Shown: positions 1 through 38,394 of the stretch, piece by piece
How the letters are laid out: each line of letters opens with the position of its first letter
Numbering within the stretch: the stretch's first letter is position 1
Source of the DNA: Gekko japonicus
Lineage: Eukaryota
NCBI RefSeq assembly: GCF_001447785.1
Contig: NW_015176566.1
Location: 1 to 64,000, forward strand
Direction of reading: 5' to 3'
DNA length: 64,000 nucleotides
Notes under the pieces: model-generated
Seen by the model: the letters and a program-made list of their open reading frames with translations, nothing else
What the model was told of the DNA's origin: nothing
Databases searched by the model: none
Translations under genes and position numbers: made by a program

Positions 1-1980
1 GAGCCCCATGACCACTGTCTATCCTGTGCGACCCACACATACAATAATAAAAGATAGGTAATACTATGTGTGTGTGTGTGTTAAGTGCCATCAATGTGGT
101 TTCAACTTATGTCAACCATATGAACTAATGACCTCGAGAACATCCTATCATTAAGAGCATGGCTCCAGTCTTGTATGCAGTAATAAGTATAGCATAAATA
201 ATTACAGAGTACCTTTCCACAGGAAGGGTTGTGTCCCCCACACCAATGTCAAAGCTTAGCTTCGTCATATATATGAAGTGAGTGGAAGGGTTTCCATCTC
301 TGTTCTTTCCACTCTCACCTCAACATGGAACACTGGAAATTGGGACAGAGAGATTGCCAGGGTACACAGAGGAGGACCAGCTGGCTGTGGAGAAGGAGGA
401 GTAACACCATTCCCTCCAACTATGGGGAGATGGCTCGTTTTGGTGTAACTGTTTTGCTGGTTTTACTTTCCCTTCTTTGTAGTCAGCCTGTTGTTGTCTT
501 GGTGATTGCTCATGTGCTGAGGTGAGGGCACAGAGATTGTTGATATAGGGGGATTCTGGAGAGGATGGGCCTTTCCATCTTGGAATGATGCCTAAAGGTC
601 AAGTAGGCTCACACCTGTTCTCCAGTCCCTCCGGCAGTAGCGGTTTCAATGTGGGAACCACCTGCCAACCACAAGCCCTACTGGGCAATGATCTGGAGGA
701 CTTTTCAGGAACATGGAAAGGGCACCAAATTGGGGATGAGCCATAGGTAGCTTGTCAATAAGCTATATCTGGCCTCTGAGGCAGTGAGTGAGTATCTCTG
801 GTGTATGTCATGTTGATAAAGGAAAAATACGTGCTCATTAGTGTCTTTCAGTGATCTTAGCCCACAAAATAGGCCTCAATGATACATTATTCCTTGAATG
901 CAACCCTTCCCCACAACTACTTACAATATACATCCTTCAAGGAAACATGCTCTGTCCTGTCTATATATGTGTGGAACCTCTTGTTTGCCTTCTATACTTC
1001 TTGGTAAAGAACATAATGAATCCATTTTGTTTTCCACAATTCTGGGCATGTTATAAGCTGAACACACACACCCCAAAAAAGGAGGGGGAAAACCCAATTA
1101 AAAAATTGAGTTGGGTACCACAAAAGAAGAATAAAAAATGTTTGAGTGTATGGTTGTGTGTATGTTTGTGTGTGCATGTATATTAAATAAACAAAATGAA
1201 ATTATTATACAGTGCACTTAAAATACAAATTTAAAAACATAGGCTTTGAATTAGCCTTTGGGCTAAAAGTAACCAGACTAAGTAGTCCTGAATATACAAT
1301 ATATAATACAAACGAGTATCTCAAAACTGATGGTATACAAAAAAGACCACAGTTAATCAGACTCAGTGATTACCTCAAGGACGAGAGTTCACAAACAAAG
1401 TCACAGTAAACAAGACCAAACTCATTGGCTATATGGGCTTTCTTCACAAATACACACATAAACACCAAGAACAAGTCTTGATATAATAAGCCAGACCATG
1501 TGTTAACTGATTGCTGAAAAATGAGGACAAAAATGAATATTTTAATTAAAACACCCGGAAAATGCAATAATATTTTTTTTTTAAAAAAAAAAACCTCGCT
1601 GGGAAGAAATTTTAATAATCACTCACAAGTGCATTTTATTCCTTGTAGTCAAATGGAGACATTAAAAAGATCATGGATTTTGTTCCATTATTTTCATGCT
1701 CACATATAAAAATGTCAGATTATAAATCACATTTAAATTACATCTAATCTGCCAATACGTAATGGTATAATATTATTATATGTACATATATTTGTGTTGT
1801 ACTATCAAAATGACCTTAATGAAAATTATAATAAATAAATAAAATGTATTTCCAACCAACATGAATGGCTAAGATTAGGTTGGTAACACATTTTACTCAT
1901 CCTTTATAATTTTTGATCATTTTGATAGTACAGTAGGCAGACTGGGGAATCAGACCTGGGACTTCTAGCTTCTAGTCTGA

Positions 1981-8509: not shown

Positions 8510-9468
8510 ACAAGAGGAGACCCGCAACAAAATGTTGCGTAATGTATTGTGGTCCTACAGCCCTACATACATACGCACCCACATATCCACAGCTATATAT
8601 CTATAGATACACACACACACACACACACACACATCTATAGAGACACATACATACACATACATGCGTGTGTACACACACACGAGAGACATACATAAGCACA
8701 GGGCGGGGACAGGGCGAAGGCGGGCCCGCAGAAGAGTCTCCCTCCACGGAGGCACCTGAGGCAACCCGCCCCCTAGAGAGAGGAGAGTCCCTTTAAATGA
8801 GGAGGAAGCGGCCGGTGACCCCGGGGCTCAGTGGCGACAGGGGGGGAGGAGGGGGGCTGGGGGGTCCAGGCTGAGCCCGGCCGTGAAGGACGAGGAAGGC
8901 AAGCCCGGCCAAGAGAAACCGGCGACCTGGAGGTGGAAGGTGGAGGTGACCGCCCTCCACCCCCCTCCCGCCCTCCACCTGGACCCCGCCTGCCTGCCGG
9001 CCGGTCTCGTAGCCCGTCCCCGCCTGCTCTGTCCCGCCCGGCTAGCGGAGTGTCCGGCAGAGCACCTCACCTGCGTCCTCCTCAGCATCGCCTCCGTTCT
9101 TTCCTCCTCCTTCCGGGCGGCGCCGCCCGGCTCATCCCGTAAGGCATCGGGGCCGAGCGCTGAGGTAAATGGCGGTGGCGGCTCTGGCCAGTCGCCTCAA
9201 TGGGTGCGGCGTTACCGCCATCCCGGCGCCATTACTGGGCGACAACTGACACTGGGGGGGAGGGGAGAGTGCAAAGGGGCGGCCAGGAGCAGCGGCGCCC
9301 AGCAGGGCAGGAGCCACTTTGGGAAGTCTCGTGAGGAAGCCGGCGGGAAGAGCAGGAAGCCGCTCGTCCCTCGCTATTTCCCTCCCCCCGCAAGCCGGCA
9401 CTGAAGCCGTCCCTTGCTATTTCCCTCCCCCCCCCCCAACCCGGCCCCCAAGCCGGGCCGCAAAACTA
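8510..9468 (-). mobile_element. Helentron (Helitron2)-like non-autonomous element with captured GC-rich cargo
   Basis: The minus-strand 3' end is CTTGT(T), preceded by a perfect hairpin cgcaaca-aaa-tgttgcg (8523-8539). Asymmetric subterminal IRs: gtattgtggtcc (8544-8555) vs gggccgcaaaac (9455-9466), 9/12. Internal CA/TA microsatellite; A/T-run boundaries; no TSD. Confidence 0.6.
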
Positions 9469-9793
9469 AACCAATCATGTTAGGCACCTTGAATGCTATG
9501 TGTATCTTTTAAACAAAACTTAGTTTATTTAAGGTAACCAATCTGCTCATCAGATGCATAAATTATGTGTGTGAGAGAGAGAATGTTTAAATTAGCCAGT
9601 GGGTATCACATGCAAATGTTTAGTTCAGCAGAAGGTAACTGGTTTGACACTGTGAAACCAGATGGGAGATTAGGTGGAACACTGTTCTGATCCAGCATAG
9701 TATATCTTATGTTTTTAGTCCAATGGTGATCCTTTCAGTTTGCTACCATTATTGTGACTGTTATTATTCATGTCTCTGTAGCTGTCTGATATA

Positions 9794-11131
9794 ATGGAGA
9801 AGGAAAACTGAACTGTGGTTGCAGAATTTGTCTTTCTTCATTTCACTAGCATACCAAGCCTTGAGGCAGCACTGTTTGTGCTGTTCTTTATCATCTACAT
9901 CCTGGCACTTCTGGGCAACCTGCTGATCATTGTCATCGTGGTGGTGGATTCATGCCTCCAGACTGCCATGTATTTCTTCATCTGCAACCTGTCAATGGTT
10001 GAGGTTTGGTATGCCACCATCACAGTGCCGAAGATGCTGGTGAACCTCCTGGCAGACAAGAGGGCCATTTCAATCCAGGGTTGTATCACCCAATATTACT
10101 TCTTCTTTGCCTTTGCTGCTATAGAACTGTTCCTCCTTACAGTCATGGCTTACGATAGGTACCTTGCCATCTGTAAGCCACTAAGCTACTCCACCATTGT
10201 AAGGGATGAGAGAAATGAGGTCACAAATTGCCACCCCCCAGTGAGCAGAAAAGAGCGTAAGTTTGGGCAGGATTACACCTTGAGGGAAGGAGGCTGCACG
10301 CCGTGCTAATCACCAGCAGCTGTAAGGTTTTGTTATCTGAAGGGAGTTTCAGCAGATAAGATATGCTTCTTACAGGACGCACCTCAGTTTGTGTGGCGGG
10401 GATCTGACGAATAGTCCTGGAAGATGGCCCAACGTGCTACCAGGAACGATTAGGAAGAGAGCTGCAGCTTCCTTTTATGAATGAACATTTTATATTTGTG
10501 AGTTACCTATTTTATTGCCAACGGCTTCAACGAGGGCTGTTTTCTGCTCTGCATACAGCCCGGGAGAGTAAAGACTGTTTTATTTATTAAATGAACTGCT
10601 TTTAACAAATATTTTCCCTGCTGTTGGGAGCTGCGTCTGTGGTTGTATTGACACTTGGCAAGCTGAAGCGAACCCACAAGGATCCTTACAGTCATGGCTT
10701 ACGATAGGTATCTTGCCATCTGCAACCCACTAAGCTACTCCACCGTCATGAACCCAAAGACATGTAAAAATGTGGCTACCCTTTGTTGGTTTGTAGGATT
10801 TATATGCCCTACTTTTCCATCTTTCATGTTAGCTAAAGTTTCCTTCTGCTATATGCATATTGTGGTCACCATATTAAAAATGTCTTCTGCTGCAGCCCGA
10901 AGGAAAACATTCTCTACATGTATCTCACCCCTCCCAGTAGTCACCATCTATTTTGGGACCCTCATTTTCATGTACGTTTGCCCAGCAGTAAAGTACAAAT
11001 CAAATGCCAACCAAGTAGTGGCTGTTTTTTACTCAGTGATAAGTCCACTGTTGAATCCAATGATCTACACACTAAGGAACAAGGATGTGAAAGAGGCTTT
11101 GAAGAAAATATTCCTCAGAAATAAAATCTAA
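9794..11131 (+). pseudogene. Olfactory receptor pseudogene (early stop, LTR insertion, in-frame deletion)
   Basis: ATG GAG AAG GAA AAC TGA gives a stop at codon 6. Motifs LQTAMYFF, MAYDRYLAIC, KTFSTC and PLLNPMIYTLRNKDV are present. Interrupted at 10198-10690. The SFC-to-YMH junction at ~10849 removes EC2/TM5. Confidence 0.95.
10198..10690. mobile_element. Solo LTR (Gypsy/ERV-like)
   Basis: 493 bp with TG...CA termini and inverted ends TGTAAGG...CCTTACA. ATTAAA/AATAAA-like signals inside. Interrupts OR coding sequence. Confidence 0.75.
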
Positions 11132-11393: not shown

Positions 11394-11749
11394 CTGCCGG
11401 CCGGTCTTGTAACCCGTCCCCGCCTGCTCCGTCCCGCCTGGCCGGCAGAGTGTCCAGCAGAGCCGCCTCACCTGAGCCCTCCTCAGCGTCACCTCCATTC
11501 TTTCCTCCTCCTTCCAGACGGTGGCGCCCGGCTCATCCCATAAGGCGTCGGGGCCGAGCGCTGAGGTAAATTGCGGCGCCAGCGGCTCCGGCCAGTCGCC
11601 TCAGCGGGCGCGGCGGTACCACCATCCCGGCGCCATTACTGGGCGACAACTGACACTGGGGGGGAGGGGAGAGTGCGAAGGGGCGACCAGGAGCAGCGGC
11701 GCCCGGCAAGGCGGGAGCCACTTTGGGAAGTCTCGCGAGGAAGCCGGCG
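11394..11749. repeat. Second, direct copy of the GC-rich cargo at 8994-9345
   Basis: Colinear ~355-bp match at roughly 85% identity. No element termini or TSD seen. Confidence 0.9.
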
Positions 11750-14009
11750 AGAGGCTGCTGAATGCATAGGTCTAACAAATAAAAGGTTTAATCAAATAGA
11801 CATTCATAGATTCCCACTCAGACCTGCTCTACCATGCAGCAGAATGAAATGTAGAAGTCTGAGAAAGCAGAATGGGCTGTATCACTATTGAATACATAGG
11901 GGAGGGAATCATATTTTTCAGTGCACCCCAGGGGGAAAAGATTCTAAGTTAGCCCTTTGCTAGATGTGCTAATTTTAGGGCATTGCTAATATAGGATAAA
12001 TTAGAGAAATATAGGGCGCAGTCCTAAACAGGTCTCACAAGTAAGTGCCATGAAGTTGAATAGGATTTGCTCTCAGGTCACTGCACATAGGCCTGCAGCC
12101 ATAATCCCTTACCTGCATTCTGAGGTGGTGCAGTCCATTCTACCACCTCTGACTCCTCATTACCATCTCCTTCTGCTGCATGCCTACAGCAGGCTTCAGA
12201 TTACTGAAGACAGTGGAGTCACCTGTTCATAGTTGTTGTTGTTCAGTCGCACTGTTCATAGTGGGGAAGGGGAAAACAAGAGGGATTGAATGCATCCCAC
12301 TCCCTCTCCATAAAAAATATGACTGACAGCATACTAATTATTTGAATGAGGCTGCATATATCCAATTGGCAAGTGAATGTGTCTTTTGACTTATGGGAGC
12401 TGTACAGATTCCCTGATTGCATGTGTTCTTCATTATGTCTGCTAACGCACATCTGTGCATTATGTCTTCATGTCTGCTAAGTACACAAGTCTGAAGGCTT
12501 CATTCCATGCATGTATGCCTCTAACTGGATGGGAGTTCTGAGTTTCAAATTTCAGTTATGACTTTCAGAATCTAACCTTTGCTTTTAGTCCAAACTAATA
12601 GTAAATTAGGGTGTTGGCATCCAAAATATGAGATAAGAGAAAATAAGATGGTCATATTTTATTTTAGATTATACTTTAAGTGTGTTTGTGTGTGTGCGCG
12701 CGTGCGTGTGTAAATTGGTGTGATATAGCAAAAACAATCAAATCAACAAAAATGTAGGGAAGGAGCTGCAGATATATTAAGAAAATTGGAAACATTTCAT
12801 TTATGAGGATCTTTTCTTCTCAATGTTTTTATTTTGAAAAAGTATTATTATTTATTATTATTAAAATTTCTGAATCACCCCATCCCTGGGGTGATTTACA
12901 ATACATTAATATACACAGTACGGTTTAAAATCAACAATCAGTTAATCCCAAAGTTTCACAGACTTCTGATGGTATTTATAATTTATCATCTGTTTATTAC
13001 AGAACTTCCCCATAACATACAGTTGCCCTATCAACATTATTACACTTATGTGTAAACTACGATGCTCTCCCATGCTTGACTTATATGCCTTTTCAGTCCT
13101 TTCTTGAAATTCCTGTACAAAATAATTTATTACAAATGTTAAAAGAAATGTTAAAAACCCTTCTGAGACCATTGGGTTCCATGGCACCTTAAGGACTACC
13201 TGTTTTGGGCTACAACAATAGAGTACTATTCAGTCCTTAAGCTAACAGGGTTGTGTCCCCCCAAAAAAATTAAGAGGGTGGTGCATGCAGAAGGTCCTCA
13301 AGTTCAGTTGCTGGCATCTCCAGATAAATGGATATCTGAAATCCACTCCAGTCAAAGTATGAGATTCTGGGCTAGATGGATCAATGGTATAAGGCAACTT
13401 CATATGTTCAATGATATAAACCTTTCAGCATAGTAAACCCCATTAAATCCAGTGGGGCTTCCAAATCAGTATACATATGATTGAATAGAATATTAATGAA
13501 GCCTTCTGGACACTAGTTTAGGGAAAGGTTTTGTTTTGTTACTGTCACAAGACCCTGACGACTCCCCTTTGCTGCTGCTAAAGTCCTCAAGCCCCCCTTG
13601 CTCCACCACCTTGGTGACCCACCCTTTAAAGCAGCAGGGGCCTCAGACACCTGAACGGGGAGGGTCGGCTACTTCACCATCCCTACCACAATGTTCCCTC
13701 TGGATGGTTGGCGCTCTGTGTCTCTATTCCAGAATTGCCCTATTCCAATCCAGGTAGTCATCCCTGGCTGCATCTCACCTGAATCAGGAAGTAGTAGCGG
13801 AGATCGCGGCCCCTCCCAAGAGTTGGCATCCTCAGTTATGGAGGGGGCGGGGCTTGGGAAGGGAGGAGGGTGGGGAGAGCACAGGGAACACTGGGACACA
13901 GCAGTAGGAAATAAAAGGAAGCAGCAAAATCTCTTTTAAAGGGACAGAGCATTTTTTTCTCCAGGCTAGTCAGTAACCTTCTCCAGTATGGTATTCAATG
14001 AAGATGTAA

Positions 14010-27058: not shown

Positions 27059-29784
27059 TAGTAGCCTTGCCATGCCGCATCTGTCTCCTTCCTGTTTTTG
27101 CCGTTATGTTGTAATAATTAATAAAGTGGCCCGTTAGTACCCAATATTGTTGTCTGCCTCGTTATTCCGGCTTGGGGGGCAAAGAAGGGAAAATGATAAA
27201 AGAAATGAAGTACATAATCATTTAGTCAATGAGGATTATTAAGAATGCAAATTTAATAATAATATTACAGTACGCATTGATACGTGACTACCACGTTCAA
27301 AGTAAGACCAAATTTTCTCTCACTAATCCTTTATAATACATATTTAAATTAGACATGTTTCAACATACTGCATTGGGAGTGAGGCTCAGAAATAACAGCT
27401 AGACTGAAACCATACTGTGAGTTCACAGTGAGAGAAGATTTGAGGCAGGGGCTTCCTTCGTATCCCACACTCTTACTTACTATGCTATAACCATTTGACT
27501 AATTTTCCTTCCTCTGGACATCTGTTGATTGTCAGTCCTTCCCAATGCCCATTTGCAGTCTGTTGATTGCTAGTCAGAAAGGATCCTCAGAGAAAGTAAA
27601 AATGTCTTCACCTAGACAGGATAATCTTAAATTTCTGCCGTTTTAGTTAGATTATAATCTTTCCTTTCTTTCACTGAATGAAAGAAAAACAACCAAATTC
27701 CCTTCAGTAAGTAGGAATAATATTGAAAATGGACTTTGTAATATGGCTCCAGGAAAATGGCAACCAAACAATAACGTTTCATGAAATACTTTAATAAGTT
27801 ACTTACCTTTTTAAAATTTTGAATGACTGGAAATTTCACTGTTGTGCTTCCTTTTTGCCTCTCACATATGACTGGAGAACCAGGAATGCAAAGAAATGTG
27901 TTTGGAAGCAATGGTATCGCTTTAGGACATAAAAGCAGGTTATGTGGATCTGCAGCTGTGTCACTGAGAGCTGTGACTCAAGGTGTTGTTTCAGAGAATG
28001 TTGTGAAGCACATGATGGAGCTTCCTGCACCTCTACCAAAGTGACAGAATGGTGGGAAATATAATCCCTTCCACTTCCCATCTCAATTCTCACTGGGAGC
28101 TTTGGTTTCCACAGAGGACCGATACTCTAATAAGATCTCCCCTGACTCCGATAATTAGGTTGGAAAAACCTTTGTGAGGGAGGGGGAGCAGATATTCCTA
28201 TGCGTAACTTTTTAGTTGTGCAGATTCCATGTTGTAATTTTTTTTCTGGCCAAAAAGGAGCAAGGAATTCCACAAATTGGGATGTCATGAAAGCATGCCT
28301 GGTTGAGGAGGTCCCTAATCACACACTGAGTCAGGTCCAACCAGTACGGTTGCCAAAAAGCAGGGCTGCCAGCCTTCAGGTGGGGCCTTGAGATCTTAAG
28401 ATCACAGAGATCAGCTCCCTTCAGAATAGGGTTACTCTGGAGGATGAAATCTATGGCGTGATACTTTGTTTAGGTCCTTCCCCTCCCTAAATCCCACACT
28501 CACCAGGCTCTACCCCAAACCCAGAGTTAGCAACCCTACCAAAAAGCCACATGAAGTGTGGACTGTAATAAGGAGGAGAATGTGTCAGGACTGAGCAAAA
28601 AAAAAGCTGGCTGGATCCAGCCCATGATATCACTGGTTTAGTGGAGGTAAGTGAGTGTGCCATTGGGGGAAGTCCTGTAACTCAGTAGTAGAGCACCTCC
28701 TTTGTATATGCAGAAGGCAACAAAGGCAAAGTGGTGCAATGGCCACCCTATGATTAGGAAGATCCAGTCCATATAAAGGTCCAATCAGTCTTGCATCTCT
28801 TGGTGATCTTGGGCCACTCACTATTTGTTCAGCCTTCATTCCTCTGCAGTGGCCGTAACTGTCACCACAATTTTCTTTTCATCACATCATCTGCTTTGAC
28901 CATATACATTATCTCATTTATTTGTTTGATGACCTATGGACCTAATTTTTTAGAAAAGCACCCTCTCAGTGGCATGGAATTGTTAAAAGATAATATTATT
29001 ATATAAAGTAATTCAAATGAAATCACAGAACTGCAGAGTTGGAAGAGACTGTTGGGATCCGTTGGGATGGATTGCAAAGAAAAGCAGGCTTTTAAAAAAA
29101 AAATGCTGCTTGTGTCATTGAGTCAGGGAGTTCATGGGTTAATTTTCCACTCAGTTCAAGAAATCCAAATATCTGGATCCAACCCATCAAGTTGTTGCTT
29201 GCTTAAGTCCATGCCTGCTTGCTGTAGTATTTTTGTTCACAAAAATTGTGAATATTTTTATTATTATTTCAATAAAACCATTCTAAGCAACAGTTTGCTT
29301 GTGACTGTTAAATAGTCTAATAATGAAGATGTATTTCTCTATGCAGTTTTGCATGGAACACCTGCCTATTTTAAAACTTCATGAAACCACAGCTGTCTTG
29401 TAGATGTTGCTTCTTACTTTCTTTTTCAGGGTCATTGTACTATAGTAGTATAGAGTATCAGATGAGAACCTGAGACAGCCTGGTTTGGATCCTCACTCTG
29501 TCCATTAAAGCCTGCTGAGTGACTTTAGACTCATCACAATCTCTCAGACTTAACCACCATACAATGTATTTCATTTTATTTAAGTTACTTCATTTACACA
29601 CCACTTTTCTCCCCAATGGGGAGAAAGTGGTTTCCAATTTTCTGCCCTTCATTGTATTTGTATGTCACACTTAGCTCAACTCTGCTGAGTAGGCAAAGGC
29701 AACTCCCAGTCCATGAAGGATGGGAATTGGACTTGAATTCTTCTGGAAAGTTCTACAAATTAAGACATTATTCCTGTTGGAAAA

Positions 29785-36880: not shown

Positions 36881-38394
36881 CGCTTTAATAAGTTACTTAC
36901 CTTTTAAAAAATTGAAAGACTGGGAATTTCACTGTTGTGCTTCCTTTCTGCCTCTCACATATGACTGGAGAATCAGGAATGCAAAGAAATGTGTTTGGAA
37001 GCAATGGTATCGCTTCAGGACATAAAAGCAGGTTATGTGGATCTGCAGCTGTGTCACTGAGAGCTGTGACTCAAGGTGTTGTTTCAGAGAATGTTGTGAA
37101 GCACATGATGGAGCTTCCTGCACCTCTACCAAAGTGACAGAATGGTGGGAAATATAATCCCTTCCACTTCCCATCTCAATTCTCACTGGGAGCTTTGGTT
37201 TCCACAGAGGACCGATACTCTAATAAGATCTCCCCTGACTCAGATAATTAGGTTGGAAAAACCTTTGTGAGGGAGGGGGAGCAGATATTCCTATGCGTAA
37301 CTTTTTAGTTGTGCAGATTCCATGTTGTAATTTTTTTCTGGCCAAAAAGGAGCAAGGAATTCCACAAATTGGGATGTCATGAAAGCATGCCTGGTTGAGG
37401 AGGTCCCTAATCACACACTGAGTCAGGTCCAACCAGTACGGTTGCCAAAAAGCAGGGCTGCCAGCCTTCAGGTGGGGCCTTGAGATCTTAAGATCACAGA
37501 GATCAGCTCCCTTCAGAATAGGGTTACTCTGGAGGATGAAATCTATGGCGTGATACTTTGTTTAGGTCCTTCCCCTCCCTAAATCCCACACTCACCAGGC
37601 TCTACCCCAAACCCAGAGTTAGCAACCCTACCAAAAAGCCACATGAAGTGTGGACTGTAATAAGGAGGAGAATGTGTCAGGACTGCGCAAAAAAAAAAAA
37701 GCTGGTTGGATCCAACCCATGATATCACTGGTTTAGTGGAGGTAAGTGAGTGTGCCATTGGGGGAAGTCCTGTAACTCAGTAGTAGAGCACCTCCTTTGT
37801 ATATGCAGAAGGCAACAAAGGCAAAGTGGTGCAATGGCCACCCTATGATTAGGAAGATCCAGTCCATATAAAGGCCCAATCAGTCAAGCATCTCATGGTG
37901 ATCTTGGGCCACTCACTATTTGGGCCACTCACCATGTTGTAATTTTTTTTTACTGGCCAAAAAGGAGCAAGGAGGTCCCTAATCAGTACGGTTGCCAAAA
38001 AGCTGGGCTGCCAGCCTCCAGGTGGGGCCTGGAGATCTTTATACCACAGAGATTAGTTCCCCTGCAGAATATGGTTACTCTGGAGGGTGGAATTTATGGT
38101 GTTATACTTTGATGAGCCCCCTCCCTAAATCCCACCCTCACCAGGCTCCAGTCCAAACCACTAGGAATTTCCCAACCCAGAGTTATCTGCCCTACCAAAA
38201 AGTTCATGCTGAGGATCATGGGACCTGTAAGGACAAAAGCCACAAGAGATGGAGGCTGTAGTAAGGACAAGAATGGGGCACAATTGAGCAAAAAAAGGTG
38301 GTTGGATCCAACCTGTGATAGTACTGGTTTAGTGGAGGGAAGTGAGTGCTCCATTGGAGGAGGTTCTGTAACTCAGCAGTAGACGACATCCTTT

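Follow-up and report, generated by a model that had tools for sequence, protein, structure and literature searches.

A non-autonomous Helitron carrying the 5' end of CEP350 in Gekko japonicus

At about nine places in the genome of Gekko japonicus, a non-autonomous canonical Helitron contains a piece of the host gene CEP350 that comprises its likely promoter, exon 1 and the first part of intron 1; the element is likely mobilized in trans by RepHel-coding elements, and the copy studied here is likely methylated and inert. We place the probability of this reading at about 0.9. The copy lies within a stretch of 64,000 nucleotides (contig NW_015176566.1, positions 1 to 64,000; hereafter the window), for which a preliminary description had proposed a rolling-circle element into which a housekeeping gene's CpG-island 5' end had been captured. 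That proposal holds, and the donor can now be named as CEP350. The features discussed below are as follows.

8511-9466, minus strand: non-autonomous HLE1 Helitron copy; 3' end and cargo common with seven other contigs; 5'-truncated here or mis-joined in the assembly
8511-8556, minus strand: Helitron 3' terminus, a 7-bp hairpin (8523-8539) and then CTTG; the target T is 8510
8557-9070, minus strand: 5' part (~510 bp) of captured CEP350 intron 1, including an unused AG at 8927 and a TG-rich tract; 8557-8597 matched to the parent, the rest inferred
9066-9073, minus strand: CEP350 exon 1 splice donor CAG/GTGAG, with six spliced reads; the intron starts at 9070
9071-9280, minus strand: captured non-coding exon 1 of CEP350, from RNA depth at 9060-9281; upper bound approximate
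9281-9350, minus strand: likely CEP350 proximal promoter, judged from its place upstream of the RNA-covered part; CGCG-type motif at 9327-9336
9351-9466, minus strand: remnant of the Helitron's own 5' interior, with two repeat units (9365-9389 and 9408-9432) that have similar units in sister elements; not a terminal inverted repeat (TIR)
9794-11131, plus strand: olfactory receptor (OR) pseudogene; codon 6 is TGA, an LTR-like insertion interrupts it, and part of its interior is deleted
11394-11752, minus strand: second, terminus-less cargo fragment with promoter motif, exon 1 and donor; 89% identical

Results

Origin of the cargo

As first noted, the cargo is a CpG-rich island in AT-rich DNA (GC content 0.67 and CpG observed/expected ratio 0.79 at 9001-9500). 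RNA labelled as from the same species was aligned to it at 85% likeness, which gave 5, 10 and 4 reads from 3-12% of three runs of unstated tissue, and one contig. None of them reaches 99% likeness to the window copy, so that their source is another locus. At the 9071/9070 donor, six reads (three each from X1 and X2) depart from the cargo, which confirms the consensus donor of the preliminary description as genuine, and they share one 17-nt loose end. This loose end has a single match in the 2.49-Gb genome (C16853:50873-50889; the reversed control gave 0). The match begins four bases into an exon preceded by an AG acceptor, and these first four bases are identical to the ones common to the reads and the donor. 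The exon is CEP350 exon 2: its 14th base is the ATG of P0001, the centrosome-associated protein 350-like of Gekko japonicus, whose N-terminus it encodes and which is 99% identical to an exon further downstream. A LAP1_C gene, which we take to be TOR1AIP1, the usual CEP350 neighbour, lies upstream of the locus.

About 10 kb upstream of CEP350 exon 2, a gap of 658 N lies between GC-rich edges. Its right edge (G000:C16853:40755-40795) aligns to 8557-8597 at 36-37 of 41 nt (E 1.6e-8), with 5-6 of 19 nt matching beyond; the parent thus diverges from the cargo where the Helitron terminus begins. Direct DNA searches for the parent returned Helitron copies only, because exon 1 of the single host locus that the cargo matches, a locus without the element's ends, lies in this assembly gap. 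The gap is shorter than the ~750 bp required, its left edge has no overlap with the cargo, and reciprocal alignment of reads on exon 2 listed the exon 2-3 joint (4 + 5 reads) and no loose end upstream of exon 2. Given the spliced reads into CEP350 exon 2, along with the match at the gap edge, the cargo derives from the start of CEP350 and comprises the promoter region together with exon 1, which is non-coding, and ~510 bp of the first intron.

Hence, the exon-intron-exon cargo proposed earlier gives way to exon 1 with part of intron 1. The AG at 8927 does lie 144 bp from the donor, but no RNA joint uses it as an acceptor, and a 144-bp intron was rejected, with no such joint listed and zero depth over 8838-9059 in all four RNA sets. 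Similarly, the anticipated parental locus with spliced reads exists, as one CEP350 locus, but no joint listed for its reads involves that acceptor. The TG/CA tract (~8598-8695) described as an internal microsatellite is present, but its DINE-type reading finds no support, as the tail matches the CEP350 intron; on sequence comparison, this TG-rich tail is captured intron in at least its last 41 nt. Both promoter motifs assigned to the minus strand are likewise present, namely TCTCG(C/T)GAG at 9327-9336 (here with T), presumably a BANP motif, and the YY1-like ATGGCG near 9167, but both read on the plus strand.

Mechanism of capture

A single capture would have taken place, at the DNA level because an intron is included. 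A template switch most probably joined the family's 3' end onto CEP350 intron 1 at a short duplicated motif, GTAGGAC, without the making of a new end. Of 22 ends without the cargo, 10 have GTAGG(A/G)C ahead of the terminus; this motif also closes the stretch that matches the parent, and is duplicated at the junction. A microhomology-guided template switch is therefore the mechanism that we somewhat favour, on the strength of one 7-nt motif.

The main competitor is end-bypass, in which a Helitron located upstream of the CEP350 promoter was read through to a second 3' end in intron 1, on an allele since lost. In the parts of PMC4778049 available to us, such bypass is shown for Helraiser, as is an insertion bias toward CpG islands and promoters, and the cargo, which lies in sense orientation and abuts the 3' end, has the expected arrangement. 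However, the present parent has no Helitron terminus at the capture point, the 3' end is the family's standard one rather than new, and the junction carries the duplicated 7-nt motif, so that we regard end-bypass as the rather unlikely route.

The element would have been mobilized in trans by RepHel elements with matching ends; RepHel spread in trans is established Helitron biology (PMC4778049, in part). A RepHel search gave 34 matches, and of 13 loci fetched two (L079 and L082) carry the element's 3' end. L082 is a 7.5-kb element that starts with TC after A and ends with CTTG before T, and encodes Helitron_like_N and PIF1 domains; both loci are broken by stops.

Copies and their fate

Cargo that extends beyond the 5' repeat unit is found at nine places on eight contigs, eight of the nine with the 3' end; the eight places other than the window copy are 88-97% identical to it. 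There is a further element with matching ends whose interior lies in a gap (C3391), and a 3' tail (C1715) whose flank is shared with the copy on C7929. The second copy of the preliminary description was also recovered, as the cargo fragment at 11394-11752; it shows 4.5% non-CpG divergence from the majority of copies, has no Helitron end nearby, and its lower flank is single-copy, the genome search having matched the flank itself alone. This fragment sits 1.9 kb from the main copy and is more diverged than it; a deleted second insertion and a repair patch are the options.

C95284 (L104, 1-479; 479 bp) is 98% identical to window 9467-9800 and shares the OR stop at codon 6. The contig runs on for 9 nt beyond the junction, where 4 nt agree with the far flank. 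An A^T empty site would account for this, but the same letters are similar to the terminus as well; possibly, C95284 is an empty allele or a paralog. A search with the other flank for an empty site returned repeats only.

Compared with the majority sequence, eight copies (which are not independent) carry transitions at 64 of 680 CpG bases and at 19 of 1,748 other C/G bases, an 8.7-fold excess, while non-CpG change amounts to 52 of 2,636; with such non-independent copies, the p-value of the excess is overstated. Omitted from the CpG count were the C7929 copy, whose 5' half is possibly shared through assembly, and the C3391 copy, whose cargo is in the gap. In a sister capture with an assembled parent, the copy has lost 18 CpGs to decay and the parent 3. 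The excess of CpG decay points to germline methylation of the copies. They would then have been silenced, and the window copy is likely silenced or inert, as judged from 19 reads (3-12% of three runs).

It is also conceivable, though improbable, that after the same capture some copies are active promoters or exon traps that splice the CEP350 donor into neighbouring genes; the window copy might then drive transcription in the antisense direction toward the OR. In favour of such activity, about 90% of CpGs survive, all five copies that include the splice donor have it intact, the YY1-like motif is likewise intact in five, one RNA read is 95-99% alike to the window copy, about one read covers 8764-8837, and the bat HelibatN3 offers a precedent (PMC4778049, in the part available). 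Nevertheless, all loose ends listed at the donor lead to CEP350 exon 2, with no chimeric transcript from the copies among them in this shallow RNA sample, and no RNA depth was found at 9467-9651 (three runs, 3-12% sampled). Together with the absence of reads at least 99% alike, the CpG decay and the dead OR, the loss of the CGCG-type motif from the window copy speaks against activity there; the motif has decayed in the copies on C7929 and C6134 too, but is intact in the C2251 copy and in the second copy of the window.

Element ends and classification

The 3' hairpin of the preliminary description is present, with a 7-bp stem (8523-8529 / 8533-8539) placed 12 nt from the CTTG end at 8511, after which the next base is T; its fold has a z of -2.6, and an equally good fold arose in 3 of 200 shuffles. 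No target site duplication (TSD) is visible in the flanks of 8511-9466, again as described. The reported pair of subterminal inverted repeats, by contrast, is at chance level: between the element ends, the best inverted match has 5 nt if exact and 7 nt if one mismatch is allowed, a length of 7 nt being reached in 71% of 300 shuffles.

A search with the 3' terminus yielded 367 first-look candidates, 40 of them scored, and one with the family's 5' end yielded 3,296, neither figure being a copy number. Among 30 3' ends that were fetched, 29 read CTTG and one CGTG, all 30 followed by T. The 13 5' ends found at most 1.5 kb from them all follow A (12 TC, one CC), as do 24 of 24 further 5' ends, which gives 37 of 37; six of the seven cargo copies with an assembled 5' end start with TC. 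Hence, the termini are multicopy, as had been anticipated, but not at TT sites.

Nowhere in the window does the TC 5' end of the family occur, and the copy there lacks a ~215-bp TC-start segment present in seven other copies. Over its first 527 nt, counted from the 5' side, the window copy is identical to the copy on C7929, which likewise begins at this base, behind a gap; further on, the two differ at 36 places. Because of this identity and the common start base, the 5' junction in the window, which had been taken for a terminus, may be an assembly product.

By the definitions of HELIANO (PMC11417382, in the portion available to us), the element is HLE1 in every tested respect except the consensus CTRR end, which none of the fetched ends match. 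We consider CTTG to be a family variant of this consensus because the RepHel-coding L079 and L082 end likewise, and the element is filed as an HLE1 variant on features other than the CTRR end. An endonuclease domain is expected in an autonomous Helentron partner; neither an endonuclease family nor DUF6570 was detected in ORF pieces of at least 70 aa of L082 (21 pieces) and L079, whose broken state limits sensitivity. In the same source, HLE2 (Helentron/DINE-1) elements are defined by a T^T target, TIRs of 12-17 nt and DUF6570 (PMC11417382, same portion). The earlier assignment to this class, as an element with subterminal inverted repeats, a microsatellite of its own and an exon-intron-exon cargo, could draw on the hairpin near the 3' end, the TG tract, the missing TSD, the end that is not CTRR and the TT at the 3' flank here (as in 18 of 30 fetched ends), but is practically untenable and was rejected in favour of a canonical Helitron, given TC starts that follow A rather than T, the lack of TIRs above chance and of an endonuclease match in L082, a tail that matches the CEP350 intron, and an 8927 acceptor without a joint.

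Two further arrangements were seen among the relatives. A second type of 3' end, with another hairpin but also CTTG before T, is paired with the same 5' end at L134, L138, L146, L147 and L152, and head-to-tail Helitron pairs, in which a CTTG end is directly followed by a new TC start, occur at L012:2455 and L052.

Sister elements with other cargos

We examined 46 non-cargo elements and tested two other cargos. The first coding exon of PTPN23, with its donor, lies in sister Helitrons with the same 5' end at three places (L143:1852-1935, plus strand; L145:1195-1278, minus strand; L180; PDB match with E 4e-10). A PTPN23 parent was not found in the assembly, all three matches being at Helitron 5' ends. 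Within the PTPN23-bearing Helitron L145, an intronless ANKRD13-family piece (342-983, minus strand), a retrocopy, lies downstream of the captured exon. The third capture (L047:680-1480 and L158:1308-2051) comprises a CpG-island exon with a donor and has an assembled parent at C11199 (88%), where the assembled part of the locus shows no Helitron end and the upstream side is a gap; one of its 64 ORFs has a Pfam match, a reverse transcriptase, which yields no gene name. CpG-rich interiors resembling other gene starts were also observed at L054, L141, L151, L152 and L053.

A broader reading, which we put forward only tentatively and think doubtful, is that the gecko harbours a Helitron radiation on the scale of that in bats, CTTG-ended and with thousands of 5' ends, which would systematically take up promoters at CpG islands, along with first exons, from many housekeeping genes, CEP350 and PTPN23 among them, some paired with retrocopies, and would provide working promoters or exon traps at some sites.

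The neighbouring olfactory receptor

The preliminary description placed the element ~330 bp upstream of, and divergent from, an OR coding exon. The distance and orientation are correct (the ATG at 9794 is 327 bp from the element, divergent), but the OR is a pseudogene. It is split by the LTR-like insertion (10198 to ~10690), and its second half resumes at position 184 of the 7tm_4 profile after a deletion. The insertion (10198-10690) has 7-nt inverted ends, and 62 nt of OR sequence are duplicated around it (10134-10195 / 10683-10744, 95%), far longer than a normal TSD. Elsewhere in the window, 27809-28827 and 36902-37922 form a local duplication with ~9.1-kb spacing and 97-100% identity.

Discussion

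The element had been put forward as a candidate for an undescribed system; however, the same capture pattern is published for Helitrons of bats and Xenopus. In the following, published systems are compared on those parts of the cited papers that were available to us. The promoter-capturing Helibat elements of vesper bats, e.g., HelibatN3 (NUBPL), come closest (PMC4224331; PMC4778049), and by analogy we regard the gecko family as the counterpart of HelibatN3. Both are non-autonomous canonical Helitrons of ~1 kb with an A^T target, and in both the cargo, from one host gene, spans the promoter, 5' UTR, exon 1 and part of intron 1. They differ in that the gecko family has a squamate host, CEP350 as donor, a CTTG rather than a CTAG end and ~9 copies rather than 1,000 or more, and in that no chimeric transcript of the gecko copies was seen in the shallow RNA sample. 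In the bat HelibatN424, a retrocopy is nested beside a captured promoter, which parallels L145. CEP350 and PTPN23 are absent from the four of five bat supplementary files that were searched (PMC4224331; PMC4778049).

In Xenopus laevis, Heli1Xen1 of the Helitron1 family has captured genes repeatedly and at low copy number, with a bias to their 5' ends (17 of 19 fragments; PMC12001565). By description, the gecko family resembles it as a vertebrate Helitron with recurrent, low-copy capture of gene 5' ends; unlike that survey, which concerned coding sequence, the gecko cargo is a non-coding exon with intron. Neither cep350 nor ptpn23 nor gekko had a match in five supplementary files of that study (PMC12001565). 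Among squamates, the non-autonomous families of Anolis Helitron-1_AC and -2_AC are internal deletions, and capture is rare and limited to TE fragments (PMC3014272, in the portion available). The gecko elements share with them the canonical Helitron structure without TIRs and the presence of young non-autonomous derivatives; unlike them, the gecko family repeatedly captures host gene starts. With Helentron/DINE-1 elements they share the 3' stem-loop and the lack of a TSD, but not the TIRs, the T^T target or the start, which is TC here. Our literature search, the scope of which lay outside Dfam, Repbase and subscription journals, returned no report of such capture for squamates or geckos, or for CEP350.

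With this finding, a squamate lineage joins bats and Xenopus among the vertebrates whose Helitrons capture gene 5' ends. The reason for this preference is called unexplained in the part of PMC12001565 that we could consult. The gecko family is young, its donors can be identified and its junctions can be read, so that the 5' bias, as well as end-bypass versus template switch, can be tested on it independently. For the window locus alone, the consequence is probably nil. On the genome scale, captured copies can attract reads that stem from parental promoters missing from the assembly, and they explain stray CpG islands in the OR clusters of the gecko.
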